The notes beneath the pieces are model-generated. The model was not told the origin of the DNA. It ran no database searches and saw nothing but the letters and a program-made list of their open reading frames with translations. Positions 16,964 to 58,574 of a stretch of DNA of 64,000 nucleotides are shown piece by piece. A program made the translations under genes and the position numbers. Every line of letters starts with the position of its first letter. Within the stretch, counting starts at the first letter, position 1. The stretch is from Candidatus Binatia bacterium (GTDB taxonomy: Bacteria; Desulfobacterota; Binatia; UBA12015), in contig JAQWRY010000088.1 of the NCBI GenBank assembly GCA_029243485.1, forward strand, positions 27,221 through 91,220, written 5' to 3'.

Positions 16964-17061
16964 ACTTTTTCCGAGATCCGTTTGGTGCGCCTCGCAGGGG
17001 CGAGGGGAAAGAAGGAAGCTATACAAGATGGTAGCGAGGGGTAAAGGTGGGGCTCACCCCG

Positions 17062-27812: not shown

Positions 27813-27877
27813 GGGGCTGGATCATGGCCTATTGGCATGTCGCATGCCAGTAGAAGGTAGCCGGGCCGAACCGGGGC

Positions 27878-29633: not shown

Positions 29634-31883
29634 CTAGCTAGGCGCCGGGATCGCGCCAACTCTTGTCGGCTGGTCGACCCAGATAGGGGAGGACCAGGCT
29701 CGTTCTTCGATGTCGCTCAGGCAATCGTCCTCGTAGTCGGTTTTCGCGTCCTCGCCGTGGCACGGGTCGAGCGCGATGCAGTTGCCGTCGCCGTCGTAGC
29801 TACACCGCAGGTTCTTCCCGTTCACGGCGGGGCTCGGTTCCTGGATGGCCCGGACATAGTAAATCGTGTCGCGGCCGGTGGCGACGAACTCTTGGTCGTC
29901 GAACTCGGCGACGCAGCCCGCGGCGCCGCCGTCGCAGGGGAGCGTTTGCCAAGGGTCCTCGATGAGACCTCCCACCGGTTCGTCGTCGTGGAGTTGCGGT
30001 CGCATGCGCACGACTTCGATGCGCGTGATCCGCTTCCGCTCGTCGGCCGGGTGATAGCACTCGTTGCGGCAGAGGTCGTGGAGCCTCTCTTCACTGAGAG
30101 CGGCCGTTACAAACTCGGGGCAGCCGGGGTTCTGCTCCAGGGCACCTACGGCCCGAACCCGGAACCGAGGCGTCTCCGAGAGGGTGACTTCCGACCCCAT
30201 CGGCAGCGCGCCGCCTTGTGCGCTCAGCAGATCGAACCACAGGAGGATTCGGTCTCCGCTCGTCCCGTAGACCTCGCGCTGCTTCAGGCCTTGCCAGATG
30301 GCATCACGACCGCGACCGGCGGAGTGTACCGCGACCAGGCCTCCGGTCGTGAAGAACGAGGACATCCGCTCGACGTCGCGCGTGGCGAAGGGAACTTCGG
30401 GTTGCTCGTCGAGCGCGACCGAGTACGGGACCGGCGGGTTCTGGTTGTTCAGGAGGTCGGGGGCATCGGCGCGGGGCCCCTTGCCCTCGGTCATCTCGCT
30501 GCGATCGACTTCCTTGTAGCCGGTCCCCGGTCGCGCCGTGTGATTGTCGCTCGATGCGATGAAGCCCATCCGCGTAGCGACTGGGACTTCGCCCTCGAAG
30601 TTCTTTCGCACGAGCATGTATTGCGCCGACATGCGCGGCCGGTAGTCGAAGGCAGGGAGGAAGCAGTCGCGGCACTGGCCGGCATCGAGCCAGTCCTCGA
30701 CAGCCGTCCCTGGCACTGTGCGGAAGCCGGTCTTGCCCCCGGCAACGTGGTTCGCGCGAGCGAGCGCGGCGCGTGTCTGACACTCGTCCTCGCTCTCGCC
30801 CGCCGCGAGGCAGCGATCCCGGATGATCTCGCCGGCCCGCCTGCAGTTGGGCAGGTACCCCGACGGTCCCGGCAGAGTCGGGGGACAGATCTCGTTTCCG
30901 TTTGCGTCGAGCTCCACGTCGAGGAAGTCGCGGTACTCTTCGGAGTTGCCGTGGCCGGAGTAGATCTCCACGAGCGTCTGTCGCTTCGGGTCATCGTTCG
31001 CGGGGCCGATCTGGGAGTCCCAGGTGGATCCGGGCGGTGACGTGTTCCCCCACGTCGTCCCGTGCGGGATGACGATCGACTCGACGCCCCATTCGTCGAG
31101 CTTCGCGAACAGCTCCCCCGGAGTGCGGGCGCTCTCCTTGCAAGAGTCGGGGAGCTCGCGGACCGGGACACCCGTGGGGCACGGCGGGACGGTCGACGTC
31201 TCCTCGAGAAAGCGCGTGAAGTCGAGGGTCCGCCGGTCGTGGATCAGGAGAGCCAGGCCGGCGCGGGCTATCGGAGGCATCGCGACGATGTCGCCGCCAT
31301 CGGGGTAGATGGAAGCGATCGGCCGGGTCGGGACGCGCGCTTCGTCGAGATCCTTCAGCAAGATGTTCTTGTGCCCGAAGTGATTCTTCGCGGTCGCCCC
31401 GTCCTGCGTCCATTCCCAACCGAGAAAGGCGGTGACGTCGGGGTCTTCGGGTGTGGTGACGGCGTTGCATTGGCGGATGCTGTCGACGGTCTCCCGCCAA
31501 TGCTCGGGGGTGAGCGACTCGGCGTGATCGTTGATGGACCAGAAATCGAGTGCCGAGCAGAAACGTGCGAAGTCGCAGGCGTCGGCCGGAGGATGCGCCC
31601 CTTCGCCGGACACGAGAGGCAGGCTCATCACGAAGGCATCGGACGAGAAGGTGGTGTGCACGTGGAGGTCGCCGAAGAGGATCTGCTTCTCGGCCTGGCC
31701 GAGGGCGGCCGCGGCCGCCTCTCTTTCTGCCGCACGTTGCGCGAGGGCGCCCGGGGGGAGCGCGACGGCTGTCACCTCTCCCGCAGGCTCGTGATTGCCG
31801 AAGGCACCTCGGCCGAGTGCGTAGAACCCGCCGGCGGCGAGAACCACGAGGACGATCAGGGCATAGACAAGGCGTCGCAGCAC
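29634..31883 (-). CDS. DUF3604-family protein (PHP-like metal-dependent phosphoesterase N-terminus), membrane-anchored/secreted
   Basis: 749 aa. GTG start gives a signal anchor MLRRLVYALIVLVVLAAGG. GDLHVHTTFSSDAF and later HGTTWGN metal motifs. Many Cys in the C-terminal half. Confidence 0.7.
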   Translation of the reverse strand: MLRRLVYALIVLVVLAAGGFYALGRGAFGNHEPAGEVTAVALPPGALAQRAAEREAAAAALGQAEKQILFGDLHVHTTFSSDAFVMSLPLVSGEGAHPPADACDFARFCSALDFWSINDHAESLTPEHWRETVDSIRQCNAVTTPEDPDVTAFLGWEWTQDGATAKNHFGHKNILLKDLDEARVPTRPIASIYPDGGDIVAMPPIARAGLALLIHDRRTLDFTRFLEETSTVPPCPTGVPVRELPDSCKESARTPGELFAKLDEWGVESIVIPHGTTWGNTSPPGSTWDSQIGPANDDPKRQTLVEIYSGHGNSEEYRDFLDVELDANGNEICPPTLPGPSGYLPNCRRAGEIIRDRCLAAGESEDECQTRAALARANHVAGGKTGFRTVPGTAVEDWLDAGQCRDCFLPAFDYRPRMSAQYMLVRKNFEGEVPVATRMGFIASSDNHTARPGTGYKEVDRSEMTEGKGPRADAPDLLNNQNPPVPYSVALDEQPEVPFATRDVERMSSFFTTGGLVAVHSAGRGRDAIWQGLKQREVYGTSGDRILLWFDLLSAQGGALPMGSEVTLSETPRFRVRAVGALEQNPGCPEFVTAALSEERLHDLCRNECYHPADERKRITRIEVVRMRPQLHDDEPVGGLIEDPWQTLPCDGGAAGCVAEFDDQEFVATGRDTIYYVRAIQEPSPAVNGKNLRCSYDGDGNCIALDPCHGEDAKTDYEDDCLSDIEERAWSSPIWVDQPTRVGAIPAPS

Positions 31884-31968
31884 GGTCCACTGAAATAAGC
31901 CTCCGGGCGCTCGAGCGCCAGCGGCGCGGGACTCGCTGTCAGCGCGATCTTCGATTAACCATTACCCC

Positions 31969-33220: not shown

Positions 33221-34291
33221 CTACGAGAGCTGGAGCCGCTGCAGGGCCTCGTCGGCCTCGCTCATGATTCGCGAGATGAGTTCGGCGCAGGTCGGCCGGT
33301 CGTCGATCACCCCGGCGACTGAACCGCTCGGCAGATAGCCGCCGACGGGGTCTCCGTCCTGCATGGCGCGTTTGGCGAGCATCGGGGCATTCGCGGCGAG
33401 GAGCATCTGAGATCGCGTGAGCTTTTCGTTCTGGCGCATGGCGAGTCCGGACTTGAGGAGATCGAAGAGCGAGGCGCCCGAGGTCTTTCGGAACTCGAGC
33501 GCGTTCCGCGCCGCGAATATCAATCGGCTCAAACCGCTCTTGGTCTCCAGTTCCCGGACGAGCTCGTTCACGATCACACGCTGGGGAAGGCCGTCGATCT
33601 CCGAGGTGACGATCACGTCGGTGAGGCTCGCGCCGATGTAGCGGTCCGTCGTGACTTCGGGGACGGGGCTCTCTGCGGTCATGAGGAAGCGCGTCCCCAT
33701 CGCGATGCCGGCGGCGCCCCGTGCGACGGCCGCGACGAGTCCACGACCATCCTTGAAGCCGCCTGCCGCGATGACCGGGATCTTCACGGCATCCGAGCAG
33801 GCGGAAACCTGAAGGGACGTCGCGATCACCCCGGTGTGCCCGCCGCCCTCACCGCCCTGAACGATCACGGCATCGGCGCCGAGCTTCTCAGCTTTCTGCA
33901 CGTGCCGGGGCGCACCGCATGTGGGGATGCATAGGACGCCTCCGTTCTTCAGCTTGTTGATTAGATCGGCACTGGGCGCGCGGTTGTATCCGGCGGCACG
34001 GACCCCGTGCGTGAGGATCATCTGCGCGATCTCCTCGGCGCCCGGAGCGTCCATGAGGAAGTTCACACCGAAGGGACGGTCGGTCAGTTCCTTCGTTCGG
34101 ACGATGGCTTTCTCGACCTCGGGCAGCGGGAGTGCCGCTGCGGCGAGGAACCCGAATGCACCGGCGTTGCAGGCACCAGCCACGAGCTCGGGCGTCGCGA
34201 CCCAGCCCATGCCGGTCTGGATGATGGGGGTCGGCATGCCGAGCAACTCGGTGAGGCGGGTCTTCAGCGGGTGTCCGTCCGGCAGGTTCAT
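33221..34291 (-). CDS. nitronate monooxygenase / 2-nitropropane dioxygenase family (FMN, FabK-like)
   Basis: …LLGMPTPIIQTGMGWVATPELVAGACNAGAFGFLAAA… and GGEGGGHTG. Start taken at MNLPDG (AAGGGG RBS); MSPHDD at 34333 is the alternative. Confidence 0.8.
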   Translation of the reverse strand: MNLPDGHPLKTRLTELLGMPTPIIQTGMGWVATPELVAGACNAGAFGFLAAAALPLPEVEKAIVRTKELTDRPFGVNFLMDAPGAEEIAQMILTHGVRAAGYNRAPSADLINKLKNGGVLCIPTCGAPRHVQKAEKLGADAVIVQGGEGGGHTGVIATSLQVSACSDAVKIPVIAAGGFKDGRGLVAAVARGAAGIAMGTRFLMTAESPVPEVTTDRYIGASLTDVIVTSEIDGLPQRVIVNELVRELETKSGLSRLIFAARNALEFRKTSGASLFDLLKSGLAMRQNEKLTRSQMLLAANAPMLAKRAMQDGDPVGGYLPSGSVAGVIDDRPTCAELISRIMSEADEALQRLQLS

Positions 34292-34397
34292 CCACCCCTT
34301 AGTAACAGCCAGAACGTCATCATGGGGTGACATTCCCCCGGTTCTGTCGCATTCTCCCGGTCGGATCCTGGACCCGTGAGGCCGGGCGGAGGCGCGC

Positions 34398-37388
34398 ATG
34401 AAGAATTCGCTCTGTAAATTGGGAGTTTTAGCGACGGTTCTGGCCCTGGCAGTGGGACTGCCCGCGCCGGGTGCGGCCGCGGACAAGAAATCGGCGAGTC
34501 CGACCGAGGCCGATGCGGGCACGGGGAGGCCTGGGTCGAGCAAGCGCGTGCGCACGCCGAAGCCCGCTGCGGTGAACGTCACCAAGAAGTCGTTCCAGAG
34601 CCTGGAGAAGGAAGGTCAACTCACGCTCTCGAGCCCGAAGCTCAGCGCCGAAGGCGCGCGCGAGAACCGGAGCCTCGACGAGGCCATGGGTGCGATTCTG
34701 GCCGAGCAGCTCGGGAAGACCAAGCTCGTAGATCGGTACACCGAGGTTCCGGCCGCAGACGGGAAGAGATTCGCGCGGACCGAGGCCGGCAACTACGTCA
34801 CGCGTCTCGGGACGCGCGACGGTCGCGTGGAGCAGGTCGTACTTCTGGGGCCGAGCTTTGCCACACGGGAGCTGTCGGAGACGCTCGCCGAGCTGGGGCG
34901 GCCGATGAACGCGGAGTCCAACTACGCCGCCCTCTACGAAGGCTTCCAGGGTGCGCTCGCGGCGGACCCGGCCGGACTCGGGGTCCTGCTGAAGGGAATG
35001 CCGGCTCCGGGAAAGCTCGGCAAGAAGGATCCGAAGAAGCTGCTGCGAGACCTCGCAAAACGTTGGACCAAGGCTCCCCCGACGAAGATCCCGCCGACCA
35101 AGGGCAAGCAGGACTGCGGGCTGAGCTGCGGGAAGCTCGCATCGCCGCGTACGCTCGTCGCCGGGAGTGACGGAGGTGCGTGTTACGAGAAGTCGAAGAC
35201 CGGCCTATGGGCAACCGCGGATTGGCAGATGAAGGGATCCTCGACCTGCGTGAAGGACCAAGGGGAGACGCGAGGCGCCAGCGTCGCGTTCGCGATCAAC
35301 GCAGCGGTGGAGACTTCCATCCGGCGGGAGCACGATCTTTGCGCGGATCTCTCGGAGCAGCATCTCCACTATCAGCAGAAGAACCATTGGTTCCCGATCC
35401 CGCCGAACTTCGGTGATGATCTGAATTCGCCGAGTTCCGTGTTCGGGATGATGGTGGGCGACTACGAGTTTCGCGGCGAGGCGCAGTGGAAATACAACCT
35501 CTCCCCGCAGCGAACCGAGGTTACGTCGAAGACCAAGGCCTTGGGCATTCTGCAGGGGTACCAGGGCTCTTGTGCGGGCTACGCCGACAAGCCGTGCTCC
35601 GACACGAATCACCAGGGCCAGTACGTCTGTGCGAAGGGAACTCGCTCTTGTGGCTATAGCGCGCAGATTCCGCCTGCGAAGGGCGAAATCAAGGTGCTCT
35701 CGTACAACACGTTCTTCGACGTAACGAACAGCAATCAGACCATCGATGTCGCACCGATGTTCCTTGGGATAGGCCTGCCGGTCGTCGCGTCATTCCAGGT
35801 CACGCAGAGCTTCCTCGACGCGGCGGACGACGGCTGGGTGAAGTCCGTGCCGAAGCCGAACAAGTCGAAGAAGGGAGCGCTCGATCCGCTTCGCGGGTGG
35901 CACGTCGCAATGATCGAGGGGTACGTGCGCAATCAGGACCTTGCCAAGAACACGCCGCCGGCGGCAGGTGGTGGTTACTTCATCGTTAAGAACTCCTGGG
36001 GCCCGTGCGTCGGGGACGGGGGCTACTGGTACGTCCCGAAGAGATGGATGGCGGACCACGCGCTCTCGATGACGGCGCTCACGGGGGTCCAGGCTTACGG
36101 GAAGAGCAGCGTGATCAGCGGTGCATTCAACTCCGCGCTGCAGCCGCCCGAGCCGCCCAGCCTGTTGGTTAGCCCGGCCTACATGCCGGTTTATCCGCGG
36201 TACTCGGCGCTTCGGTGGAGCGACACGAACCCGACTACGACCAGCTACAGCGTTTGTCTTCGTGAGGCCGTCGAATCGAGCCAGGGCAATGTAGACTGCA
36301 CGCTCTTTCCGGTACCGCCTGCAGTCGCCGCGCAGAAGAAGTTCATGATCGACTCCTTCGCGTACGAGGAGCCTTACCGCGGCGAGTCCTATTACTGGAC
36401 CGTTCTCGCCTGCAACGCGGCGGGCTGCCAGTACTCCGACATGAACCGAGTGATTCGGTTCACGCTCCCCAACCCGCGCCTGCAATCGCCTGTTCCTGGC
36501 TTCACCGCGACGACCCGAAGTCCGAACTTCCAGTGGTACCGCCTGACGAAGGGCTTCGACGGGCAGGGTAACCCGATCTACGACGAAGAAGTCGAGTCGT
36601 ACCGCATCACGGTGGGGCCGACGCCGCTTCCCGCGCCGGAACCGCCGTGGGAAGACGAGATGTTCAAGCACTACTCCTCGCCGGGCATTCCGGCAGGAAG
36701 CGCCGGAGGAGTGCAGACCCTGCGCTTCCCGGTGCCGGTAACCGATGAGATTCCAGCGAACCTCGGCAGTACCGTCCACTGGTACGTGGAGGCCTGCAAG
36801 ACCATTGACGGGACGCTAGAGTGTAGTCGGTTCCCGCACTTCCAGAACCGGCCGATGCAGCACGAAGGGGTGTTCTACTTCGGCACCCTGAATCTGCCGG
36901 GCGGCGAGGACCCGATGACGTTTGCCCAGGCCTGCGATGTCATCGGTGACGTGGTCGATTCGCCACGTTGTCGGAACTGCCACGCGTCCATCACCGAGGT
37001 CACGCGGTACGACACGATGCAGAACCACGGACTGTCGCCGGGTGAGACGTGTTCGAACTGTCACAACCCGAACGGAGGCAACACGCCGTGGCCCGGCCAG
37101 GGCGAGCCCGTATGGCACCAGCCCACCGACGCGGGCATGCAGTGGACGGGGCTCTCCACGGGCGAGGTCATCAGTCGAATGGCCGACGAGAACACGAATG
37201 GGGACCGCTCGCTGAACCAGATCGCGAGCCACGTCGTGATGGACCACCTGGTTCTGTGGGCCTTCGACCCCGCGGGCGGAAACGGGAACACGGGTGACCG
37301 CACCCCGGCTCCCTATGCGGACTCCTATTCCCAGGCGTTCCTCGTGTGGGCGGCGAACTGGGTCGCAAACGGCTCGAGCTGTGATTGA
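34398..37388 (+). CDS. large secreted papain-like (C1) peptidase-homologue with Ser at the nucleophile position and a C-terminal double-CxxCH region
   Basis: Signal peptide and GGAGG RBS. ADWQMKGSSTCVKDQGETRGASVAFAINAAVE aligns with VDWRxKG…QGxCGSCWAFS with Cys25 replaced by Ser. GWHVAMIEGY (His) and VKNSWG (Asn) are conserved. CRNCH at ~36968 and CSNCH at ~37049. Confidence 0.8.
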   Translation: MKNSLCKLGVLATVLALAVGLPAPGAAADKKSASPTEADAGTGRPGSSKRVRTPKPAAVNVTKKSFQSLEKEGQLTLSSPKLSAEGARENRSLDEAMGAILAEQLGKTKLVDRYTEVPAADGKRFARTEAGNYVTRLGTRDGRVEQVVLLGPSFATRELSETLAELGRPMNAESNYAALYEGFQGALAADPAGLGVLLKGMPAPGKLGKKDPKKLLRDLAKRWTKAPPTKIPPTKGKQDCGLSCGKLASPRTLVAGSDGGACYEKSKTGLWATADWQMKGSSTCVKDQGETRGASVAFAINAAVETSIRREHDLCADLSEQHLHYQQKNHWFPIPPNFGDDLNSPSSVFGMMVGDYEFRGEAQWKYNLSPQRTEVTSKTKALGILQGYQGSCAGYADKPCSDTNHQGQYVCAKGTRSCGYSAQIPPAKGEIKVLSYNTFFDVTNSNQTIDVAPMFLGIGLPVVASFQVTQSFLDAADDGWVKSVPKPNKSKKGALDPLRGWHVAMIEGYVRNQDLAKNTPPAAGGGYFIVKNSWGPCVGDGGYWYVPKRWMADHALSMTALTGVQAYGKSSVISGAFNSALQPPEPPSLLVSPAYMPVYPRYSALRWSDTNPTTTSYSVCLREAVESSQGNVDCTLFPVPPAVAAQKKFMIDSFAYEEPYRGESYYWTVLACNAAGCQYSDMNRVIRFTLPNPRLQSPVPGFTATTRSPNFQWYRLTKGFDGQGNPIYDEEVESYRITVGPTPLPAPEPPWEDEMFKHYSSPGIPAGSAGGVQTLRFPVPVTDEIPANLGSTVHWYVEACKTIDGTLECSRFPHFQNRPMQHEGVFYFGTLNLPGGEDPMTFAQACDVIGDVVDSPRCRNCHASITEVTRYDTMQNHGLSPGETCSNCHNPNGGNTPWPGQGEPVWHQPTDAGMQWTGLSTGEVISRMADENTNGDRSLNQIASHVVMDHLVLWAFDPAGGNGNTGDRTPAPYADSYSQAFLVWAANWVANGSSCD

Positions 37389-38592: not shown

Positions 38593-40962
38593 TCAGGCGC
38601 CGGCGGGTCGCGTACCGATGACGTCCTGCTCAACGAGGGCGTCGTACTCCTCACCGCTGAGTCCGAGCAGGTCGCACAGGATCTCACGATTGTTCTGGCC
38701 GAGGGTCGGCGCAGGCGTTCGGATCCACCTCTCGAGGCTTTCGTACCGGAAGGGAAGGGTTGGTGTGGGGTGCGTCCCCGCGACGGAGTGGGTTACGGTC
38801 TCGAAAAAGCCTCGCGCCTGCAGTTGCGGATGATCGGTTCCTCGTCGGGTGTCCCACACGCGCCCGGCAGGCACGCCGGCTGCGACGAGCTCCTCCACGG
38901 TCGAATCGAGGTCGCGGTCGGCGAAGAATGTGCGGAGCTCCGCATCGATCCGGTCGTGCGCGGCCCGACGTCCGGGCTCGCTCGCGAGAGCGGCCTCACG
39001 CGTCCAGGGTGCGTCGCCGAGCACACGGATGAGCGCTGTCCACTGCTCGTCGCTCGCCACGGAAAGCGCGAGCCATTGCTCGAGTTCCGGAGCGTGTCCC
39101 CGGCAAGGATAGATCCCCTGCGGCGCGGCCATCGGGGACCGGTTCCCCATTCGCTGCGGGACGTTGCCGTACGCGGTGTACTCGATCACCTGCTCGGCGG
39201 CGGCGTTCAGTGCGCCTTCCACCATCGGGCATTCGACGTGGACGCCGCGGCCGGTGTGGTCGCGTTCCGCAAGTGCGACCATCGATGCGAAGGCGGCGTT
39301 CATTCCGGCGAGCGGGTCACACGGCCCCCGTTGTATTCGCGGCTGATCGTCCGCGTGGCCGGTGACCCACGCGAGACCGGAGATCTGATCCATCGTTTGG
39401 GCGAACCCGACGTTGTCGCGCCACGGGCCGTCGAGCCCGAACGCCGGCATGCGAACGAGTGAGAGTCGTGGATTCAGTTCCTGCAGCCGCTCCCAGCCGA
39501 GTCCGAAGCCGTCGAGGACGCGGGGGCTGTAGTTCTCCACGAGCAGGTCGCACTTCGCGGCGAGTCGCTCGATGACTTCCTTGCCGCGGTCGCCACTGAG
39601 ATCGATGCAGAGGTCGCGCTTGTTCGAGTCGGCTGCGAGAAAGAAAGCGGAGCATTCCCACCACTCCTCGACCGTTCCTTTGAGAATACCGCCGGTGTAG
39701 CGAACGCCGTCCGGTCGGCGGGCGGACTCGACGTGGATGACGTCCGCGCCGAGCGATGCGAGGACGTGGGTTCCGGCCGGGCCGGCCCACCAGTTCGTCA
39801 TGTCGAGAACGCGCAGGCCCGCGAAGGGGAGGGGCGGCGTCCCTTGGGCAGGGGGGCGGTCCGCGGCGCCCGTCGATGTCTGGTTGGTGTGTTGGCCGAG
39901 TGTCGGAGCCGGCCGAGGGGCCTCGGCCGCATTGCCGCCGACGAGATAGGGGCGGCGCGGGTGCTGGAAGCTGCCGTCGGCCGAGTCGACGAAGATGCCG
40001 CGGGCGACGAAGTGTTCGTGGAGGAGCGCGTTCTTGCCGTCATTCACGGGTGCGACCGGGATGCGCAGCGCGCTCGCACGCTCCACGATCTCGGCCGTCG
40101 TGTGCTTCGTCGTCCAGGCACGAACGGCGTCCTGCCATTCGTCGAATCGCATGGTGCGTCCCGCGACGGTCTCGAGTCCCTCGCCCTCCAAGTCCGGGCG
40201 CTCGATCAAGACCAGGAAGTCGGCGAATTGTTGAGCCGAGTTTGTGTTGAAGCCGACCCATCCATCGGCGGTTGGCTCGATCGACGGCGTCTCCGTCGTT
40301 CGGGAGGGCCACGGAGCCTCGCGCAGACCCATCAGCCGATAGATCAGATCCATGAAGATGCTGCCAGACAGATTGATGGCGTCGAGCATTGCGAGGTCGA
40401 CGTGTTCGCCGTGTCCGGTGCTTCGTGCGCGCAGCACCGCGGCGAGAGCGCCCACCGCGCCGAAGGCACCGGCGACCCACTCCGCGATGCGGCCGCCGGC
40501 CTGGTAGGGCTCCTGTTCCGGTCGTCCTCGAAGGGCGACGGATCCGCCTTCGGCTTGAACGATGAACTCCGTCCACGGGCGGTGGGCGTAGGGGCCCGAC
40601 TGTCCGTAGGGGGTGATGGACAGCACGACGGCGCCGGGATGGGCCGAACGCACCCCGGCGACGTCGAAGGCGCCGGGAGTGAAGTCCTCGACGATGAGAT
40701 CGGCCCCGGTCAGGAGCTCTCGTACGTGCGCGTCCGAGGCGTCGCCGACGATGGATTGCTTCCCCGCGTTCAGAAACCGGAAGAGCGCACCGTCGGTGCC
40801 GCCGAGGTCTGCGCCCGTAGACGAGCTGCGCCGAAGGGGGTCTCCGGCCGGGCTCTCGATCTTGAGAACGTCGGCTCCGGCGTCGACGAACAGCTTCGTT
40901 GCGTACGGCCCGGCGATCTCCGATGTGAAGTCGACGATGCGGACGCCTTTGAGTCCGTGCAT
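38593..40962 (-). CDS. tandem family-III CoA-transferase (two CaiB/BaiF domains fused)
   Basis: 789 aa. Both the N-half (VRIVDFTSEIAGPYATKLF…) and the C-half (LRVLDMTNWWAGPAGTHVLASLGADVIHVES…) have the CoA-transferase III signature. Confidence 0.8.
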   Translation of the reverse strand: MHGLKGVRIVDFTSEIAGPYATKLFVDAGADVLKIESPAGDPLRRSSSTGADLGGTDGALFRFLNAGKQSIVGDASDAHVRELLTGADLIVEDFTPGAFDVAGVRSAHPGAVVLSITPYGQSGPYAHRPWTEFIVQAEGGSVALRGRPEQEPYQAGGRIAEWVAGAFGAVGALAAVLRARSTGHGEHVDLAMLDAINLSGSIFMDLIYRLMGLREAPWPSRTTETPSIEPTADGWVGFNTNSAQQFADFLVLIERPDLEGEGLETVAGRTMRFDEWQDAVRAWTTKHTTAEIVERASALRIPVAPVNDGKNALLHEHFVARGIFVDSADGSFQHPRRPYLVGGNAAEAPRPAPTLGQHTNQTSTGAADRPPAQGTPPLPFAGLRVLDMTNWWAGPAGTHVLASLGADVIHVESARRPDGVRYTGGILKGTVEEWWECSAFFLAADSNKRDLCIDLSGDRGKEVIERLAAKCDLLVENYSPRVLDGFGLGWERLQELNPRLSLVRMPAFGLDGPWRDNVGFAQTMDQISGLAWVTGHADDQPRIQRGPCDPLAGMNAAFASMVALAERDHTGRGVHVECPMVEGALNAAAEQVIEYTAYGNVPQRMGNRSPMAAPQGIYPCRGHAPELEQWLALSVASDEQWTALIRVLGDAPWTREAALASEPGRRAAHDRIDAELRTFFADRDLDSTVEELVAAGVPAGRVWDTRRGTDHPQLQARGFFETVTHSVAGTHPTPTLPFRYESLERWIRTPAPTLGQNNREILCDLLGLSGEEYDALVEQDVIGTRPAGA

Positions 40963-40966
40963 GTCG

Positions 40967-41626
40967 TCAGCCTCCCGCCGAGCGGGCCGGCCACTGCGCG
41001 AAGATTTCGGCGATTGCTTCGGGGATTCGTTTCTTTCGGAGCTCTGGGTTCACCACGGCAGTGGCGCTGCCGTACCACAGCAGGGCTCGGTTGCGGCTAT
41101 CGCGTGCCTCGATGACGAGCGAGCCCTCTTCGTATCCGTCCATCCAGGCATCGGCGGGGCCCTCGGTCCCACCCTCGGCTTTGTATTGCGCGAAGTCGCC
41201 CCACGTATCCTGGATCTGCTTGTGCTGCGTCGAAATGTGCCACGAGAACAACATCTGCGGCTTGGCTGCGCGGACGTAGCCGCGCGCGGCCAGCTCGGCA
41301 TCGGCGCGCCCACGGATCTCCTGGTCGGTGCGCTCGACGGCCCAGTTGCCGGCCCCCGCGGGATGTAGGGTACCTCTCGAACCGGTGGCGGGCGGTGCGA
41401 AGTCGTCGCGATAGCCCACGCGCTGGGGCGGCCCCGGCTGTGTCCATTCGTATGTGCGGTACAACGAGAGGTCCACGCGCGGGTTCGTTTCGACATGGAT
41501 TCGCATCGGGGGCTGCTTGCCCGCGCACCCGACCGCAGCGACCAACGACAACAAGACGACGAGGTTTTTCAGCTCTCTAGCTCCTGCGTGATGGCGGCGG
41601 CGAGTTTCTCGGGATCGAAACCCCAC
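40967..41626 (-). CDS. DUF4136-family lipoprotein (start uncertain: GTG at 41626 or CUG at 41572)
   Basis: Lipobox LVVLLSLVAAVGC-AG. The mature part (VETNPRVDLSLYRTYEWTQP…) matches the DUF4136 pattern. Stop is 4 nt before the CoA-transferase ATG. Confidence 0.6.
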   Translation of the reverse strand: MGFRSRETRRRHHAGARELKNLVVLLSLVAAVGCAGKQPPMRIHVETNPRVDLSLYRTYEWTQPGPPQRVGYRDDFAPPATGSRGTLHPAGAGNWAVERTDQEIRGRADAELAARGYVRAAKPQMLFSWHISTQHKQIQDTWGDFAQYKAEGGTEGPADAWMDGYEEGSLVIEARDSRNRALLWYGSATAVVNPELRKKRIPEAIAEIFAQWPARSAGG

Positions 41627-42237
41627 GGCCCGGGTTCTCCCTGGAAGGCGATCCTTCCTCCGCGCCCGATGAGGTAGAGCGGATCGGGCAGGCCGCCGTA
41701 GGCGCTCGCGAGTCGGTCGCCGATGGGGTCGATCACGACCGGCATGCGAATTTGGAGACGAAGGGCGCACGAAGTGGCGACGTCTTCCCGCTCGGCGTCG
41801 CTCGTGGGGTCGTTTACGCGGATGTCCTGATCGCGATTCATCGTGATGACCCACCCCTCTTCCGGATGCGCTTCTCGGATGTGCACGACGAGGAAGTCGA
41901 CCTGGTTTCGATGGGCTTCATGGAGATCGTGGAGGCGCCCCAACTGGACACGGAACGGAGGTCAAGTATGGGAGCCGAAGATCAGGGCGACTGGGCGGTT
42001 CTTGGACACTTCTGAGAGGTGGAAGGTCTTGCCGGTCTCTTGCTTCGTGCCGCCGCTGTAGTCGAACAGCGGGAGCTCGAAATCGAATGCTGGTCCGTCG
42101 GCCTCGACGGTGGCGGTCGAGAGGTCGATCATCTTCGCATCCGCGTGCAGATCGTCGGGGGTGAGAGGCGAGTCGTCCGGCGTGAGCGACTTCCAGTCCA
42201 GTCCTTCGGGCATTTTGGTAGCCATGATGGCGCCCAT
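41569..42237 (-). CDS. iodothyronine-deiodinase-like thioredoxin-fold selenoprotein (in-frame UGA, probable Sec)
   Basis: Two adjacent same-frame ORFs are separated only by a TGA at 41962-41964. Read-through gives …RPVALIFGSHT-U-PPFRVQ…FLVVHIREAHPEEGW…, the deiodinase active-site motif FGSxTUPPF plus the downstream EAHPxDGW block. Confidence 0.6.
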
Positions 42238-42299
42238 CCTTGCACCCCAGGCGGGGTGGTTCCACTCCCGGCGGCTTCAGCTGCTACGGAGGGAGCGGC

Positions 42300-43967
42300 A
42301 TGAGCGCGGAGAGTAGCGGAGAACCGGTGTCGCTCCGGCAAGTGATCCCCGCGGCCCTCGCGGGGATCGCCGTGCTCGCCGTCGTGGTCGGTAGCTTCGT
42401 CGCCTCCGAGCGCTTCATCTACTACTGGGATTTCTCGGGCTACTGGCTCGCCACGATCCAGCTGGGGGAGCTGCTCGGTGATCCCAGTGCGGCGCTCGAG
42501 CTTCTGGTCGAATCCGTCCGCCACGAGAAGTACAACCTGTTGGCGGCCGTACCGCTCGCTCCGCTCAGTCGGGTCTTTGACTACGACCGCACGGCCTGGG
42601 TTCTCGTCGTGCTCGCCGTATACGGCCTGCCCGCCGTGATCGCCCTCGCCATGGTCTCGTTGCGGATGGCCGATGCGGCACGGGTCCGGTGGGCTCCGCT
42701 CGTCGCTGTTGCGACGGTGGTCCTTCTTCCCGCCTTGTGGGCGCCACTCCTGCGCGGGTCGATCGGGATCGGAGGAGTCTGGCTCGCCGTCGTCGTGTGG
42801 CTGGTCTCCCCGTTTCCGGTGCGGGAGATGTCGATCCGGCGTGCGGTTGGAATCGGCGCGATGCTGGCCGGCCTGATTCTCTTCCGACGTTGGTACGGCT
42901 TCTGGGTTCTCTGCTGGGTCCTGGCGCTTGGGATTGAGGCGATGATCGCGCGTGGCGCGTGGCGCGACCGGCTCTCCGGCCTTCGGAAGGTCGCGGTGCA
43001 GGCCGCGTCTGCGGGCGTCTTGCTGCTGCTCATCGCGACGCCGATCGCTCTGCAGATGCTCACGACGGATCCGGCCGCGAGCCGCGCAGCGTATCGTGCA
43101 CTCGACTTCTATGCCGATGGCCTGGGTCGTGCGTCGAATCGGTTCGGCTTCGTGCCACTCGCGTTCGCAGCCGCCGGGTTGGCCGTCGCGTGGCGCAGCC
43201 CGGCGCATCGCAGCCTCGCGCGGGTGATGGCCCTGCAAACCTTTCTCATCCTGGTGATCTTCCTGCGGGCACAGCCGTTCGATCGCCACCACTACTATCT
43301 GATCGCCCCGCAGATCGGCGTGCTCGCCGCGGTGTTTCTCGTCGATCTCGCGCGCCGTGCCGGCGAGGCGGTCCTGCCGCGCGTCGGTCTCGCCGCGGGC
43401 CTGGCCGTTCTGGCGCTCGGGTCGGTCCTCGCGTTCGGTGCTCCGGTGGGACAGGGGTTGAGCGACCCGTGGGGCGTGCTCGCTACCCCGCGGTATCAGC
43501 CGCAGGTTCGATACGATCTGCCGGAGATCGTCCGTCTCTCCCGGACACTCGAGGCGCTCGCGGACGAGCCGAAGGACAAGATCTACGTTCTGTCGAGCTA
43601 CTGGCTGCTCAACGAGGACATCCTGAAGAACGCGCACCTGACGACGGAGGCTCCGAACATCGCGGCCCACGTGGAACTCTCGGCGCATCTCGATCGCAAG
43701 GAGCGATTCCCGACGCGGCTCCTTACGGCCGACTATGCGGTGGTGACGGATCCGCCGCGGGTGCACGTGCGAGCGGAGGAACAGGACGTCATCCTCGTGC
43801 CGGCCGCGCAGATTCTCGCCGGCACCGGGATCGGTCGCTCCTTCCAGCGCTTGCCCGGCGAGTTCACGCTTCAGGACGGGACGACGGTTTCGATCTACGA
43901 GCGTACCGGACCTGTCCGGTCGATGGCGAAGCGACGTCTGCGCGAGCGCCTGGAGCGGGATCTCTAG
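42300..43967 (+). CDS. polytopic inner-membrane protein, possibly GT-C-fold glycosyltransferase-like
   Basis: 556 aa from MSAESSG with a GGAGGGA RBS. Has about 10 predicted transmembrane helices and a soluble ~200-aa C-terminal domain. Confidence 0.6.
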   Translation: MSAESSGEPVSLRQVIPAALAGIAVLAVVVGSFVASERFIYYWDFSGYWLATIQLGELLGDPSAALELLVESVRHEKYNLLAAVPLAPLSRVFDYDRTAWVLVVLAVYGLPAVIALAMVSLRMADAARVRWAPLVAVATVVLLPALWAPLLRGSIGIGGVWLAVVVWLVSPFPVREMSIRRAVGIGAMLAGLILFRRWYGFWVLCWVLALGIEAMIARGAWRDRLSGLRKVAVQAASAGVLLLLIATPIALQMLTTDPAASRAAYRALDFYADGLGRASNRFGFVPLAFAAAGLAVAWRSPAHRSLARVMALQTFLILVIFLRAQPFDRHHYYLIAPQIGVLAAVFLVDLARRAGEAVLPRVGLAAGLAVLALGSVLAFGAPVGQGLSDPWGVLATPRYQPQVRYDLPEIVRLSRTLEALADEPKDKIYVLSSYWLLNEDILKNAHLTTEAPNIAAHVELSAHLDRKERFPTRLLTADYAVVTDPPRVHVRAEEQDVILVPAAQILAGTGIGRSFQRLPGEFTLQDGTTVSIYERTGPVRSMAKRRLRERLERDL

Positions 43968-45057: not shown

Positions 45058-45231
45058 GGTCGCTCCTTGGTCGCCGCAGTATGACGGTTTTTTCAGCGCT
45101 CGCCCACGGAATGGGCAGATCGCGCCGCCTTTGTGCTGAATGAATCACCGGAATCCGCCGTCCGTCCGTGGCACGCGCACTGCTTTGACGGTGAGGGCGC
45201 TGCGCGCCATCGCGTGGGAGAGGAGCGACCG

Positions 45232-46698
45232 ATGCCCAAATACATGTACGAGCGCCTTTCGGCGCAGGACAATAGTTTTCTTGTCTCCGAGCAGCCGAAC
45301 GTGCCTCTGCACGTCGCGGCGGTCGGAATCTACCAGCTTGGCGATCTGGCCTCCGAGGCCGGCGGCGTCGATGTCCGGAAGTTCAAGCGGGCTCTCGAGG
45401 CGCAGCTCCACCGGATCCCGCGGTACCGGGAGAAGCTCCAGTACGTTCCGGTCGAGGGGCGTCCCGTGTGGGTCGACGACGCCCACTTCAACATCGACTA
45501 TCACGTCCGCCACGCGGCGCTGCCGAAGCCGGGTGACGTCGAAGAGCTGAAGAAGCTGACAGCCCGAATCACCACGCGAGCCCTGGATCGTACTCGGCCG
45601 CTCTGGGAGATGTGGATCATCGAGGGGCTGTCTGACGATCGATTCGCAATCGTGAACAAGATCCATCACTGCATGGTCGACGGCTCGTCGGGTGCGGATG
45701 TAGCCCAGATCCTCATGTCGCCGACTCCCGAACACGAGATCGGGACTCCGCGGCCCTTCATGCCGCGACCGGCGCCGACGAGTTCAGAGCTCGCGCTCGA
45801 TGCGGCAAAGCGCCTGGTCCTATCGCCCGTCGAAGTCATCGGGGGTCTAGGGGCATTTGCGCGTGGGTCGTCCGATGTCGCGGGTGAGCTCGGAGCGCGG
45901 GCGCGGGCCGTCGTCGACTTCACGAAGAACGCGCTCGCGCCGTCGTCCGATACACCGATCAACGGCCCTCTCGGCCCGCACCGTCGAATCGATTGGCTGA
46001 GCCTGCCACTCGACGACGTGAAGGCCGTTCGCCGTGCGCTCGGGTGTACTGTGAACGACGTGGTGCTGGCGACCGTTACGGGAGCGGTCCGGCAGTACCT
46101 GCTTCGTCGCGGCGTCTCTCCCGCCGGCATGGACTTCCGGATTTCGGCGCCGGTGAGCGTGCGTCGCGACGACGAGCAGGGTCGGCTCGGCAATCGCGTT
46201 TCGGCGTGGATCCTTCGTCTCCCGATCGGCGAGAGCGATCCGCTCGAGTGGGTTCGCCAGGTTAGCCAGGAAACTCGTGACCTGAAGGATTCGCGTCAGG
46301 CGCTAGCATTCGACCTGATGATGAAAGCCGCCGAGTACGCTCCGTCGTCCGTCCTGGCCCTCGGCTCTCGCCTCGCATCGGGACCGATCAACATGATCGT
46401 CACGAACGTGCCCGGCCCCCAGTTCCCCCTCTACATTCTGGGGGCGCGGCTTCTGGAGATGCACCCGCTGGTGCCGCTACTCGACGGCACCGGCCTCGGG
46501 ATCGCGCTCTTCAGCTACGATGGCATGCTTCACGTCGGCCTGAACGCGGACTACGAGATGATCCCGGACCTGAGCGCTTTCATGGCCTTCTTCGCACAGT
46601 CGTTCATGACTCTCTTCGATGCGGCAGGGCTGGGTGCGCCCGCGGAGTCCGAGCAGCCCGTCGACGCCGCGGCGTCGACGCTCGCGAAGACCGCGTAG
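45232..46698 (+). CDS. wax ester synthase/diacylglycerol acyltransferase (WS/DGAT)
   Basis: HHCMVDGSSG catalytic motif. GGAGAGGAG RBS precedes the ATG at 45232. Confidence 0.85.
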   Translation: MPKYMYERLSAQDNSFLVSEQPNVPLHVAAVGIYQLGDLASEAGGVDVRKFKRALEAQLHRIPRYREKLQYVPVEGRPVWVDDAHFNIDYHVRHAALPKPGDVEELKKLTARITTRALDRTRPLWEMWIIEGLSDDRFAIVNKIHHCMVDGSSGADVAQILMSPTPEHEIGTPRPFMPRPAPTSSELALDAAKRLVLSPVEVIGGLGAFARGSSDVAGELGARARAVVDFTKNALAPSSDTPINGPLGPHRRIDWLSLPLDDVKAVRRALGCTVNDVVLATVTGAVRQYLLRRGVSPAGMDFRISAPVSVRRDDEQGRLGNRVSAWILRLPIGESDPLEWVRQVSQETRDLKDSRQALAFDLMMKAAEYAPSSVLALGSRLASGPINMIVTNVPGPQFPLYILGARLLEMHPLVPLLDGTGLGIALFSYDGMLHVGLNADYEMIPDLSAFMAFFAQSFMTLFDAAGLGAPAESEQPVDAAASTLAKTA

Positions 46699-48272: not shown

Positions 48273-48650
48273 TGACTAGCTCCGCATCGGTGAGGTCGCC
48301 AAGCGGGCCGGGGCCGCGTCGTCCGCGATACGCTACTACGAGATCGAAGGTCTGATTTCGCGACCGGCGCTACGCGGTGGGAGACGGATCTACGACGAGG
48401 GTGTCGTCTCTCGCCTTGCGCTGATTGATCTCGCAAAAGCGCGGGGTTCACGGTGGCGGAAGTGAAGCTTCTGCGCGGCGACTTCAGGGGCCGGGCCTCG
48501 ACCGGTGAGCGCTCGCGGACGAGAAGGTCGGCGAACTCGATCGCCCCATCGAAGAGGCGGAGCAGATGAAGCGTGTTCTGAAGGTCATGATGAGTTGCGA
48601 ATGCCCGCCGTTCGAGGACTGCTCCCGGGCGATCGGGGTGTGTGATTGAC
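48273..48650 (+). pseudogene. MerR-family transcriptional regulator, start lost and at least 2 frameshifts
   Basis: HTH LRIGEVAKRAGAASSAIRYYEIEGLISRPALRGGRRIYDEGVVSRLALIDLAKARG stops after …RWRK*. The expected …GFTVAEVKLL… requires +1 nt at ~48447. A C-terminal coiled coil and Cys cluster (…ELDRPIEEAEQMKRVLKVMMSCECPPFEDC…) lie in a third frame. A TAG sits immediately 5' of the HTH. Confidence 0.45.
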
Positions 48651-48695
48651 CGGCTTTTGCGTTCCGGGCACGGTCGTGGGAACACGATCCCGGCC

Positions 48696-51125
48696 ATGCA
48701 TCCCATTCGATTGATCCCCATCGCCTTGATTCTCCTGACACTTCTCTCGCCGGGCTCCGCAGCCGGACAGGTAGAGGCTCCGTCCGATCTCCAAAAGTCG
48801 CTCGACACGGGTGTCGAGACGGTGGGGGAGGAGGACGAGGTCGATGCCGGCGCGGCGCAGGCCGAGGCGGCGGAGCGCGGTGACCCGACACCTGGGCTGG
48901 ACCGGGGGGCGCGGCAGCGAATCGAGGAGATCGTGGTGAGCGCACGGAAGCGTGCAGAGCTGCTCGAGGATACTCCGGTGGCCGTCACCGTCCTCGGCGA
49001 GACCGCGCTGCGCCAGTCCGGGATCACGCGGATCGATCAGATTCAGGATCTAGTGCCGAACATGACGTTCGCCCAGGGGCTCGCTGGGCAGGCACCGCAG
49101 ATTCGCATTCGCGGGGTCGGGACCACGACCGTCGAGGTGGCGTTCGATCCCGGCGTCGGGGTGTACGTGGACGGAGTTTTCCTTGCCCGCGCGGTGGGGC
49201 AGCTGCTCGACACCGTCGATATCGAGCAGGTGGAAGTGTTGCGAGGTCCGCAGGGGACCCTCTTCGGGAAGAACACCGTCGGCGGAGCGGTGAGTGTGAC
49301 GACCGTGAAGCCGAAGCCCGAGCTCGAGGGCTTCGTGTTCGTGCGCCCGGGCAACTTCGGGTCCGTCATGACGCGCGCGATGGTGAATCTGCCGGTCTAC
49401 GAAGACAAGGTGATGACACGCTTCGCACTCTCGTCGAGGAACAGCGCCGGTTACGTCTACAATCAGTATCGTGACGAGTACATGTCCGGGCTCAGCTCGA
49501 TCGACACGCTGGGCTCTATCCGTCTCGCGCTGATCGATGATCTCACGATCGACGTGAGCGGCCAGTACTCGACCGCGCACACCAACGCACGGGGTGGGGA
49601 GTGTGTCTTCTCGGCCCCGGGTGCTCTCGAGGGCCTCGTTCCCGGCTTCAAGCCGGGGTGCGAGGCAGTGTCGGGACCCTTCCTCACGAACGAAGCCGTC
49701 GCGCAGATCAACAGTGTAACGAGCAGTGGCACCTGGGGTGTCATCGAGTACGCACCGGGCGGCTTCGCTTTTCTCGACGACCTGCTTGTGAAATCGATCT
49801 CGTCGTGGCGCCAGCAGGCGTCGGCACAGCGCTTCGATCTGGACGGCAGTTCCTACCCGGCGATTCAGCTCTCGAATGCCGGCGGAGGAGCGTTGTTCGA
49901 TGGCGAGCCGACCGAGCAAGAGCAGGTCCAGCAGGAACTGCAGTTCAACGCGTCTGCTTGGGACGGCCGAATCAACTTTATCACGGGCCTCTTTGCTTAC
50001 TGGGAGAACGCCACCGCGCCGAACACCGTGCGGGCCGAGACCGCGACGTTCGTGACCGCGACGGCCAATCGGATCACGACCGACAATTTCACGTGGGCGC
50101 TGTACGGGCAGGGGACGGCGGACGTCACGGACTGGCTCTCGCTCACGGCCGGCCTCCGGTACACCGCGGACCGAAAATCGTTCACGCAGGAGGCCTATGA
50201 CCCTCGCGCGCCCGACGTGCCGCCGGAGATGGGCGCGGATTCCAACACGTTCACGTCGTGGACGCCCGCGGCGACGCTGGCGCTGCTGACCCCGCAGGAG
50301 TGGCTCGACGGAACTCCGGTCGATCACCTGATGGGCTACTTCACGTACTCGCGGGGCTTCAAGGGCGGAGGGTTCAACGCCGTTCTGCAATCTCAGGTCG
50401 GTTCGTTGAGCCCGGTACCGTTCGACCCGGAGACGCTCGACAACTTCGAACTCGGTGTGAAGACGACCGCACTGGAGCAGCGTCTCACGCTCAACTTGGC
50501 GGTCTTCCGCGGGAAGTATGACGACATTCAGGTCTCGCAGTTCGTGACCTCGCTGGATGATCAGGGAATGGTCGTTTCGCAGCGCGTGACGCAGAACGCG
50601 GCGAAGGCGACGATCCAGGGGTTCGAGGCGGAGGCTTGGGTGCAGCCGATCGACGGACTCGTCTTCACGGGGTCGTTCGGCTACCTCGACGCGCGCTACG
50701 ACGAGTACTCCGGCTCGGAGTCGCAGATGACGTCCGCGCCTATCGATCGGGCCGGCGAGACCTTCGATCAGTCGCCGCAGCTTCAGTCGTTCGTGTCCGC
50801 CCAGTATTCCTTCGGGATCGACATCGCCGCGGACTCGCTGCTCAACGGATGGCTCACGCCACGGCTCGAGTGGGCGTACCGCGATCGGTTCCACACGGTG
50901 GCGCCGGAGGTCCGGCAGGGCTTTCAGGCGGGATACAACCTCCTGAACGCGCGGCTCTCGTACGACTTCCTAGACGACCGCGCGCAGGTCGCCGTGTGGG
51001 CGAAGAACTTGCTCGACGAGGCGTACTTCAACCAGACGTTCGCCTACGTGACGACGTTTGGGGGCGTCTCGCGGTTCTATGAGCCGCCTCTGACGTTCGG
51101 CGGCGAGCTCAGCTACGTTTTCTAG
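48696..51125 (+). CDS. TonB-dependent outer-membrane receptor
   Basis: Signal peptide, TonB box and plug (IEEIVVSARKRAELLEDTPVAVTVL), a long barrel, and a C-terminal …GGELSYVF. Confidence 0.9.
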   Translation: MHPIRLIPIALILLTLLSPGSAAGQVEAPSDLQKSLDTGVETVGEEDEVDAGAAQAEAAERGDPTPGLDRGARQRIEEIVVSARKRAELLEDTPVAVTVLGETALRQSGITRIDQIQDLVPNMTFAQGLAGQAPQIRIRGVGTTTVEVAFDPGVGVYVDGVFLARAVGQLLDTVDIEQVEVLRGPQGTLFGKNTVGGAVSVTTVKPKPELEGFVFVRPGNFGSVMTRAMVNLPVYEDKVMTRFALSSRNSAGYVYNQYRDEYMSGLSSIDTLGSIRLALIDDLTIDVSGQYSTAHTNARGGECVFSAPGALEGLVPGFKPGCEAVSGPFLTNEAVAQINSVTSSGTWGVIEYAPGGFAFLDDLLVKSISSWRQQASAQRFDLDGSSYPAIQLSNAGGGALFDGEPTEQEQVQQELQFNASAWDGRINFITGLFAYWENATAPNTVRAETATFVTATANRITTDNFTWALYGQGTADVTDWLSLTAGLRYTADRKSFTQEAYDPRAPDVPPEMGADSNTFTSWTPAATLALLTPQEWLDGTPVDHLMGYFTYSRGFKGGGFNAVLQSQVGSLSPVPFDPETLDNFELGVKTTALEQRLTLNLAVFRGKYDDIQVSQFVTSLDDQGMVVSQRVTQNAAKATIQGFEAEAWVQPIDGLVFTGSFGYLDARYDEYSGSESQMTSAPIDRAGETFDQSPQLQSFVSAQYSFGIDIAADSLLNGWLTPRLEWAYRDRFHTVAPEVRQGFQAGYNLLNARLSYDFLDDRAQVAVWAKNLLDEAYFNQTFAYVTTFGGVSRFYEPPLTFGGELSYVF

Positions 51126-58492: not shown

Positions 58493-58574
58493 GGCGTCTT
58501 GGAATAGACCCCGCCGGGCCGGTTGTCGATTGCAGCACCGCATCGTACTCGAAGGTGTGGACTTCGATCGCTTC

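Follow-up and report, generated by a model that had tools for sequence, protein, structure and literature searches.

Bacterial deiodinase-like proteins (Pfam00837) in selenocysteine (Sec)- and Cys-containing forms, with a bacterial selenocysteine insertion sequence (SECIS) element, were described from the Sargasso Sea by Zhang, Fomenko and Gladyshev in 2005 at a Sec:Cys ratio of 4:6 (PMC1088965), and 22 Sec and 21 Cys sequences were counted in the Global Ocean Sampling survey of 2008 (PMC2398784). Reviews of 2022 and 2026 list the family, and the functions of such selenoproteins are largely unassigned (PMC9312934, PMC13188914). Among the animal iodothyronine deiodinases (Dio), Tyr197, His219, Phe258 and Arg275 of mouse Dio3 have been assigned to a proposed proton relay and to thyronine binding (PMC11592359). 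Here we analyze a deiodinase-like gene on the minus strand of a 64,000-nt stretch of DNA from a Candidatus Binatia bacterium (assembly GCA_029243485.1, contig JAQWRY010000088.1, positions 27,221 to 91,220), hereafter the window. We find, with a probability of about 0.82, that two open reading frames (ORFs) separated by a UGA are one gene of the bacterial deiodinase-like family and that this UGA, codon 88, is decoded as Sec. An earlier note on this DNA had called the gene a probable bacterial selenoprotein, a call supported by homology, by the position and conservation of the UGA, by hairpin constraint and by purifying selection.

The two ORFs share one frame of the minus strand, the upstream ORF at 42237..41962 (91 aa, ending in ALIFGSHT-TGA) and the downstream ORF at 41943..41569. 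The TGA at 41964-41962 is the sole interruption, which reproduces the layout reported in the note. Translation through the UGA gives RPVALIFGSHT, the UGA-encoded residue and then PPFRVQLGRLHDLHEAHRNQVDFLVVHIREAHPEEGW, and the frame remains open to the stop at 41571-41569. The 124-aa second ORF (41569..41943) opens at a TTG, 41943-41941, that is Leu95 of the joined protein. The downstream motif FLVVHIREAHPEEGW, which the note placed about 25 aa after the TGA, is present but starts 23 residues past it. There is an alternative ATG upstream at 42237 (minus strand). The N-termini of orthologues read MASKMPEG and MANKLPDG, and because these align with MATKMPEG at the ATG at 42225, we take 42225 rather than 42237 as the likely start; an AAGGA is located 11 nt upstream of it. 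The parts of the gene are as follows.

41569..42225, minus strand: predicted deiodinase-like selenoprotein coding sequence, 218 codons including Sec88, plus a terminal TGA at 41571-41569
41965..42225, minus strand: N-terminal part, residues 1-87, with the TPxDSPLTxxD motif, peroxiredoxin-like N-terminal strands and strand beta1 (PVALIFGS) (conservation table)
41962..41964, minus strand: in-frame UGA, predicted Sec codon U88, in the motif FGSHT-U-PPF (Dio3/Dio2 alignment, family column)
41935..41951, minus strand: predicted bacterial SECIS, formed by GUGUCC (41951-41946), the loop AGUUG (41945-41941) and GGGCGC (41940-41935) (RNAfold and comparison)
41941..41943, minus strand: UUG, Leu95, inside the SECIS loop and miscalled as the start of a 124-aa gene (ORF list, database fragments, codon bias)
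41572..41961, minus strand: C-terminal part, residues 89-218, with the PPF helix start, the (Y/H)IREAHPEEGW loop-D base, Cys153, YGG/LPD(R/P)LYL and QGxxGPxGF (Pfam, Dio alignment, conservation)

We searched the joined protein with Cys in place of the in-frame stop. It matched Pfam PF00837 (T4_deiodinase) at E = 1.1e-26 with 94.1 bits against a cutoff of 27, and the PDB entries for mouse Dio3 (4tr3, E = 5e-18) and mouse Dio2 (9h48, E = 2e-15). The hidden Markov model alignment covers residues 43-173 of the Dio3 chain, the deiodinase-specific inserted segment included, and the window TGA aligns exactly on the residue that was changed from Sec to Cys in both crystal constructs. The deiodinase/thioredoxin-fold active site that the note had recognized around the TGA is thus borne out by both the family and the structure matches. 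The family retains the equivalents of Dio3 (numbered as chain index + 113) Ser167 (S85), Thr169 (T87), Sec170 (U88), Glu200 (E118), His202 (H120) and Trp207 (W125), and Arg260 corresponds to R182. Dio3 His219 and Phe258 are replaced in the family by P140 and P180, both invariant, and Arg275 by Glu or Pro (Pro198 in the window protein). Cys153 is present in 162/164 sequences and the distal Cys239 of Dio3 is not conserved.

Weak Pfam matches were also found to AhpC-TSA, Thioredoxin_8 and Redoxin, with PF00578 at 24.9 bits, under its 26-bit gathering cutoff. NCBIfam NF038285 scored 167.3 bits against a curated cutoff of 250, with profile positions 174-341 of 347 matched (E = 6e-49). An AlphaFold model was available for the Cys homologue P0055, not the window protein (pLDDT 74, pTM 0.73); its top two PDB matches were Dio2 and Dio3 (TM-scores of 0.75 and 0.74), followed by ResA/TlpA-type oxidoreductases and 1-Cys peroxiredoxins. 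At its N-terminus the protein reads MATKMPEGLDWKSLTPDDSPLTPDDLHADAK, acidic and hydrophilic, and as judged from the sequence it has no hydrophobic stretch or transmembrane anchor there; it is predicted to be a soluble, cytoplasmic enzyme of thioredoxin/peroxiredoxin fold. A T-P-x-D-S-P-L-T-x-x-D motif at the N-terminus (42162-42225, minus strand; residues 1-21, continuing to about residue 45) occurs ahead of the catalytic domain in nearly all bacterial homologues. Animal deiodinases lack an equivalent of this motif, which the P0055 model predicts with low confidence.

The genome and metagenome scans were pooled into 150 distinct homologous sequences, and the codon at the catalytic column is TGA in 144 of them, TGC in four, TGT in one and TCA (Ser) in one. 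Relatives were present in at least 546 genomes of a species-representative scan (one genome per species) and on at least 527 contigs of a metagenome scan that was seeded with Cys-type sequences and still returned nearly all TGA forms. Such relatives are not truly rare, and the note's statement that Sec-containing Dio-like proteins are rare in bacteria holds only in part. TGA occupies the column in 84/84 motif-matched loci of the genome scan and in five further loci that the motif had missed. The hosts are labeled as Deltaproteobacteria/Myxococcota, Gammaproteobacteria (Pseudomonadales, Azotimanducaceae), Chloroflexota, Actinomycetota (Gaiellales and others), Acidobacteria, Spirochaetaceae and Limisphaerales. 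The protein search returned mostly 123-127-aa fragments limited to the part after the UGA, a pattern that is expected if gene callers stop at a conserved UGA. The DNA of three such fragments, from three unrelated gene contexts, has an 87-91-aa ORF ending in TGA and then, 18 nt on and in frame, the fragment annotated as 'T4_deiodinase'; across unrelated contexts the pieces after the UGA measure 123-130 aa.

Selection has acted on the protein on both sides of this codon. The flanks are invariant or nearly so (PVAL-FGS-T before the UGA and PPFR-Q after it), and the ratio of nonsynonymous to synonymous divergence (dN/dS) from the nearest relative, L009, is 0.133/1.108 (∼0.12). The G+C content at third codon positions is 0.82 in the N-terminal part (41965..42225) and is high in both halves. 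Orthologues keep one TGA and an intact frame, so that the pseudogenised relatives with other lesions that the note named as grounds for abandoning its call were not encountered. Comparison with Cys homologues, which the note proposed as a check, places Cys at the UGA column in five distinct sequences: P0055/L169 (TGC), L176 (TGT), L089, L174 and L175. In these true Cys forms, one unbroken ORF of 225-245 aa encodes the protein. A random nonsense mutation, which the note thought unlikely to strike the one catalytic position, is excluded by the 144/150 TGA count, far beyond chance, together with the invariant flanks and the low dN/dS.

P0004 (L172, L173, 446-1054; two assemblies) has TCA (Ser) at the Sec column and Ser also at the equivalent of Cys153, and still keeps a perfect 7-bp hairpin, CGCCGGC-AGUU-GCCGGCG; it may reflect a recent loss of redox function or a non-catalytic derivative. 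L175 carries a Cys-form deiodinase-like gene (GSYDCPPF) with the SECIS-loop CAGTTG retained and adjoins a SelW-like/Rdx gene reading MGFRITYCVQ-TGA-NYEP, a CxxU motif (135-360 on the minus strand, and 675-1112). The organism of L175 appears to use Sec though its deiodinase-like gene is the Cys form. An apparent 'Trp form', P0028 (L171, 410-1093), was rejected, its TGA having been translated as Trp.

Downstream of the UGA, the window RNA folds into a 6-bp hairpin whose stem begins 10 nt past the UGA and whose 5-nt loop has G in second position (−8.0 kcal/mol; RNAfold, positions 10-39). The fold that the note had proposed to look for is thus a hairpin of bacterial SECIS type at the expected place, and it is kept across the TGA orthologues. 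Because the window hairpin alone is statistically not distinctive, the SECIS call rests on comparative data. Counting from the U of the UGA, the apical loop falls at positions 18-22 in 136/144 TGA forms, with the loops AGUUG, AGUU, AGUUA and (A)GGU(U). A hairpin counted as SECIS-like in the strict sense if its loop was 3-7 nt long, started at positions 18-22 and carried G in its first two positions, and if it had four or more contiguous pairs and a free energy of −7.5 kcal/mol or lower. Such a hairpin is found in 132/144 TGA forms, the window gene included; synonymously resampled sets contain on average 27.6/144 (maximum 34), and one of the five Cys forms has one.

Covariation was scored in a fixed 6-bp register over 74 genome-derived sequences and gave 0.388, compared with 0.169 for shuffled data (0/500 shuffles reached the observed value), with 80 double-change cells; among all slid registers the score was best at slide 0. 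The fixed register pairs just 72% of cells (71% at slide −1), since loop length is 4 nt in some sub-lineages and 5 nt in others, and those with 4-nt loops use the −1 register. Per-sequence folding was also used because a single register pairs only this fraction of cells.

Codon choice in the loop is equally constrained. Where the loop codon encodes Leu it is UUG (n = 90) or UUA (n = 7) and never CUN, so that 97/97 are UUR, as compared to 10% UUR elsewhere in these genes. The Val loop codon is GUU in 35/46 as compared to a background of 9%, and CAG is the preceding Gln codon in all cases (143/143). The Leu codon that follows, immediately outside the hairpin, is at background usage. In the Cys form L169, which has no hairpin, the same R-V-Q-L is encoded by ...CAG CUC GAU GCC. 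Together, the comparative hairpin and codon data indicate selection at the RNA level that is linked to the UGA, the signature expected of a bacterial SECIS. A search of the window against Rfam gave no relevant match at any threshold and no Rfam SECIS hit.

In the mechanism that we propose, UGA88 would not be read as a stop. The hairpin 10 nt on, with its AGUUG loop presenting G21-U22, would act as the SECIS, and SelB carrying Sec-tRNA(Sec) would bind it, leading to the insertion of selenocysteine. If selenium or the machinery were lacking, translation would halt after 87 residues. The Sec88 selenolate, at the N-terminus of helix alpha1 in FGS-x-T-U-PPF, would be the nucleophile and, by analogy with animal deiodinases and peroxiredoxins, may attack an electrophilic atom: the halogen of an aromatic ring, or the O or S of a peroxide or disulfide. 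The oxidised Sec88 would be re-reduced, probably by a selenenyl-sulfide with Cys153 and then by a thiol reductant. Thyroid hormones would not be expected as the substrate.

Several observations weigh against Sec decoding of this particular gene. Taken as a single sequence, the 91-nt fold around the UGA is not significant (z = +1.34), 38% of synonymous recodings of the window sequence fold as well or better (p ∼0.38), and two of the six pairs in the stem are G·U. No AIRS-, SelA- or SelB-type gene was detected among the 40 ORFs scanned in the 64-kb window, nor did the window contain a second selenoprotein gene when it was searched for in-frame TGA with coding potential and for CxxU/UxxC-type motifs. 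The literature that we searched held no experiment on any bacterial member of the family. Finally, the window protein, alone among 164 sequences, carries Y86H, Y115H and R182P, and two of these sites are also conserved in mouse Dio2/Dio3. The positions of the three substitutions are listed here.

41968..41970, minus strand: His86 (CAT), two residues before Sec; Tyr in 162/164 homologues (conservation)
41881..41883, minus strand: His115 (CAC), equivalent to Dio3 Tyr197; Tyr in 163/164 (conservation, Dio3 alignment)
41680..41682, minus strand: Pro182 (CCG), equivalent to Dio3 Arg260 of the ERLY motif; Arg in 163/164 (conservation, Dio3 alignment)

At the 45 most conserved columns, 134/164 sequences deviate nowhere and just four do so at three columns or more. 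The three substitutions could mean altered or impaired function; they may stem from a shift in function, from early decay or from an error in the sequence. The gene is not an old pseudogene, because dN/dS is ∼0.12. Searches for tRNA-Sec gave none in the window or in 60 related loci, and tRNA genes of any kind are absent from the window. We ran tblastn with E. coli SelD, SelA and SelB as queries (the SelD query validated against PDB 3u0o) over 1.6 Mb comprising the window and the loci and obtained a single weak match, to a GTPase domain in L067, that does not amount to evidence of SelB. In agreement with the note, which saw no sel genes in the window, none of selA, selB and selD was found within the 64 kb. 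This absence carries little weight because 64 kb is ∼1% of a genome.

These points bear most directly on the possibility that the family is a real selenoprotein family and that this particular member has shifted in function or begun to decay, for instance in a host lineage that has lost or is losing Sec decoding, so that the gene yields an 87-aa truncate or a crippled enzyme. The three unique changes are non-conservative and fall at near-invariant sites, the hairpin with its two G·U pairs is weaker than in L001 and L009, the identity of this copy to outgroups is somewhat below that of L009 and L001, and the 64 kb hold neither Sec machinery nor a second selenoprotein. Against decay, the dN/dS is similar to that of relatives, neither half has a frameshift or an extra stop, third-position G+C is high in both, and the window still has the strict SECIS-like hairpin with the UUG loop codon and the CAG; the absence of sel genes from 64 kb, ∼1% of a genome, counts for little. 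We consider a shifted or decaying copy unlikely. A related proposal takes the substitutions, with two Tyr-to-His changes close to the active site and R182P, the loss of an Arg shared by bacterial and mammalian proteins, as re-tuning of the window protein and the family as cytoplasmic reductive dehalogenases of halogenated aromatics instead of generic redox proteins. It is doubtful; if true, the cytoplasmic dehalogenase chemistry of the family would be ancestral to thyroid-hormone deiodination.

The remaining explanations dispense with Sec altogether and fare worse than Sec decoding of a single gene. A TGC or TGT codon becomes TGA by a single-base change, so that an ordinary pseudogene of a Cys-type deiodinase-like gene would need only one random mutation, and the non-significant single-sequence fold would agree with it; the comparative data contradict it, with TGA in nearly all distinct homologues across phyla, purifying selection on both sides of the codon and an RNA-level constraint specific to the TGA forms, and we regard it as extremely improbable. 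Hardly more credible is decoding of the UGA as something other than Sec, by reassignment to Trp or Gly, by near-cognate read-through or by the insertion of Cys. The database entry P0028 shows Trp at the column, but this is a translation-table artefact of TGA, and reassignment is excluded because at least 16 Pfam-supported window genes terminate with TGA. The signature of SelB-dependent recoding is moreover present, in the form of a conserved hairpin whose loop carries G-U and which lies at the canonical distance, and the catalytic column holds Sec in the animal homologues and Cys in bacterial ones. That gene callers consistently output both pieces could be taken to mean two separate small genes, of 87-91 aa and of 124 aa from the TTG at 41943. 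The split, however, would cut a single thioredoxin-fold domain within its beta1-alpha1 active-site motif, the supposed TTG start is Leu95 in the hairpin loop and 43 distinct sequences have GTT/GTC (Val) in its place, and the true Cys forms are undivided, which leaves two genes the least probable of all the explanations, with next to no chance of being correct.

The selenoprotein gene is followed on the same strand by two further genes.

40967..41571, minus strand: DUF4136 lipoprotein gene, downstream (PF13590, E = 9e-22; alignment with L001 and L009)
38593..40962, minus strand: double-domain family III CoA-transferase gene, beginning 4 nt after the DUF4136 gene (PF02515, E = 6e-165)

The DUF4136 frame appears to open at a CTG that overlaps the selenoprotein stop (CTGA, 41568-41571), giving M/L-KNLVVLLSLVAAVGC, a good lipoprotein signal. 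The same CTGA overlap is present in the 81%-identical L009 (∼10650), and the corresponding sequence in L001 is GTGA (10369). This arrangement suggests non-canonical CTG initiation or termination-reinitiation coupling of the DUF4136 gene. The order of the deiodinase-like, DUF4136 and CoA-transferase genes is common to close relatives only (L001-L003), and it is probably just in this lineage that the CoA-transferase gene shares the operon. No gene neighbour that might hint at function was conserved beyond close relatives across 83 loci.

On the other side, a 575-aa multi-pass membrane protein (42228-43967, plus strand) is encoded divergently from the selenoprotein gene, with ∼74 nt between the likely starts, and a 1002-aa protein is encoded at 34380-37388 (plus strand). 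Neither ORF had a Pfam match at E ≤ 1e-5 despite a good coding signal. Other genes of the window encode DUF3604, a PhyH dioxygenase, a nitronate monooxygenase, a WS/DGAT wax-ester synthase, a TonB-dependent receptor, many short-chain dehydrogenases/reductases, and CoA ligases/transferases (coordinates 29634-31961 (−), 27878-28849 (−), 33221-34615 (−), 45085-46698 (+) and 48594-51125 (+)). This gene content points to a Gram-negative heterotroph that degrades lipids or hydrocarbons. DUF3604 and PhyH genes also flank the deiodinase-like gene in the unrelated locus L005. The window further encodes a DSBA-like thioredoxin-fold protein and two GST_N-type proteins (17035-17661 (+), 26784-27821 (−) and 57374-58702 (−)), whose families have Sec members elsewhere and which here have no in-frame TGA.

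Gene callers split this gene and hundreds of relatives into an unnamed ORF of 87-91 aa and a 'T4_deiodinase' fragment of 123-127 aa. Most public entries for the family (P0001-P0120) cover the C-terminal part alone and begin inside the SECIS loop, at the TTG or at GTT/GTG. The family is far more widespread than the first surveys suggested, occurring in marine proteobacterial, Actinomycetota and Chloroflexota metagenome-assembled genomes, and it is overwhelmingly Sec-dependent (144 Sec to 5 Cys among distinct sequences). The gene is also carried by the complete metagenome-assembled chromosomes OZ244143.1, OZ245781.1, OZ252299.1 and OZ245002.1. The finding itself opens no new question; a tractable member of the family could reveal the role of deiodinase-type chemistry outside animals.

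Among known proteins and elements, the ResA/TlpA-type oxidoreductases and the 1-Cys peroxiredoxins (AhpE), the next structural neighbours of the P0055 model, also carry their nucleophile at the N-terminus of alpha1. The window protein differs from both in having no CxxC, a sub-threshold PF00578 match, and the deiodinase-specific IREAHPEEGW and inserted segment. NF038285, the 347-aa 'deiodinase family protein', matches over its C-terminal ∼170 positions, whereas its ∼170 N-terminal positions have no window counterpart. The SECIS of E. coli fdhF is a hairpin within the coding sequence that begins ∼10-11 nt past the UGA and places an apical-loop G-U ∼21-24 nt from the U. The window element resembles it in following a UGA with a hairpin 10 nt on, in a loop G-U ∼21-22 nt from the U, and in its location within the coding sequence. 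It differs from fdhF in its shorter stem (6 bp), in that no bulged U was identified, and in its unrelated sequence.

With the animal deiodinases Dio1-3 (4TR3, 9H48) the window protein shares the catalytic domain of thioredoxin/peroxiredoxin type and the FGSxT-U-PPF motif, in which Sec is the nucleophile. The equivalents of Ser167, Thr169, Glu200, His202, Trp207 and Arg260 are kept in the bacterial family, and Arg260 is lost in the window copy. Dio1-3 have an N-terminal transmembrane anchor that the window protein does not, and their SECIS is a kink-turn element in the 3′ untranslated region, whereas that of the window is a coding-region hairpin presumably read by SelB. Dio3 Tyr197, His219, Phe258 and Arg275 correspond to His115, Pro140, Pro180 and Pro198 in the window protein and to Tyr, Pro, Pro and Glu/Pro in the family. 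The window loop-D is 3 residues shorter than that of Dio, and in place of the non-conserved Dio Cys239 the bacterial proteins have Cys153.

The closest match is the bacterial family of 2005. Both have PF00837, a UGA at a catalytic column that is Cys in some homologues, environmental bacterial hosts, and a bacterial-type stem-loop right after the UGA with G in a small apical loop. Nothing essential differs; Y86H, Y115H and R182P are unique to the window copy. The reviews give the motif of the family as 'UxxC', whereas the window protein and all 163 others compared here read U-P-P-F/Y, and the Sec:Cys ratio of 144:5 found here is far above the 4:6 of 2005 and the 22:21 of 2008. As the family was published in 2005 and the window gene shows all of its sequence-level features, the gene is best regarded as a member of a known family, correctly called rather than newly discovered.

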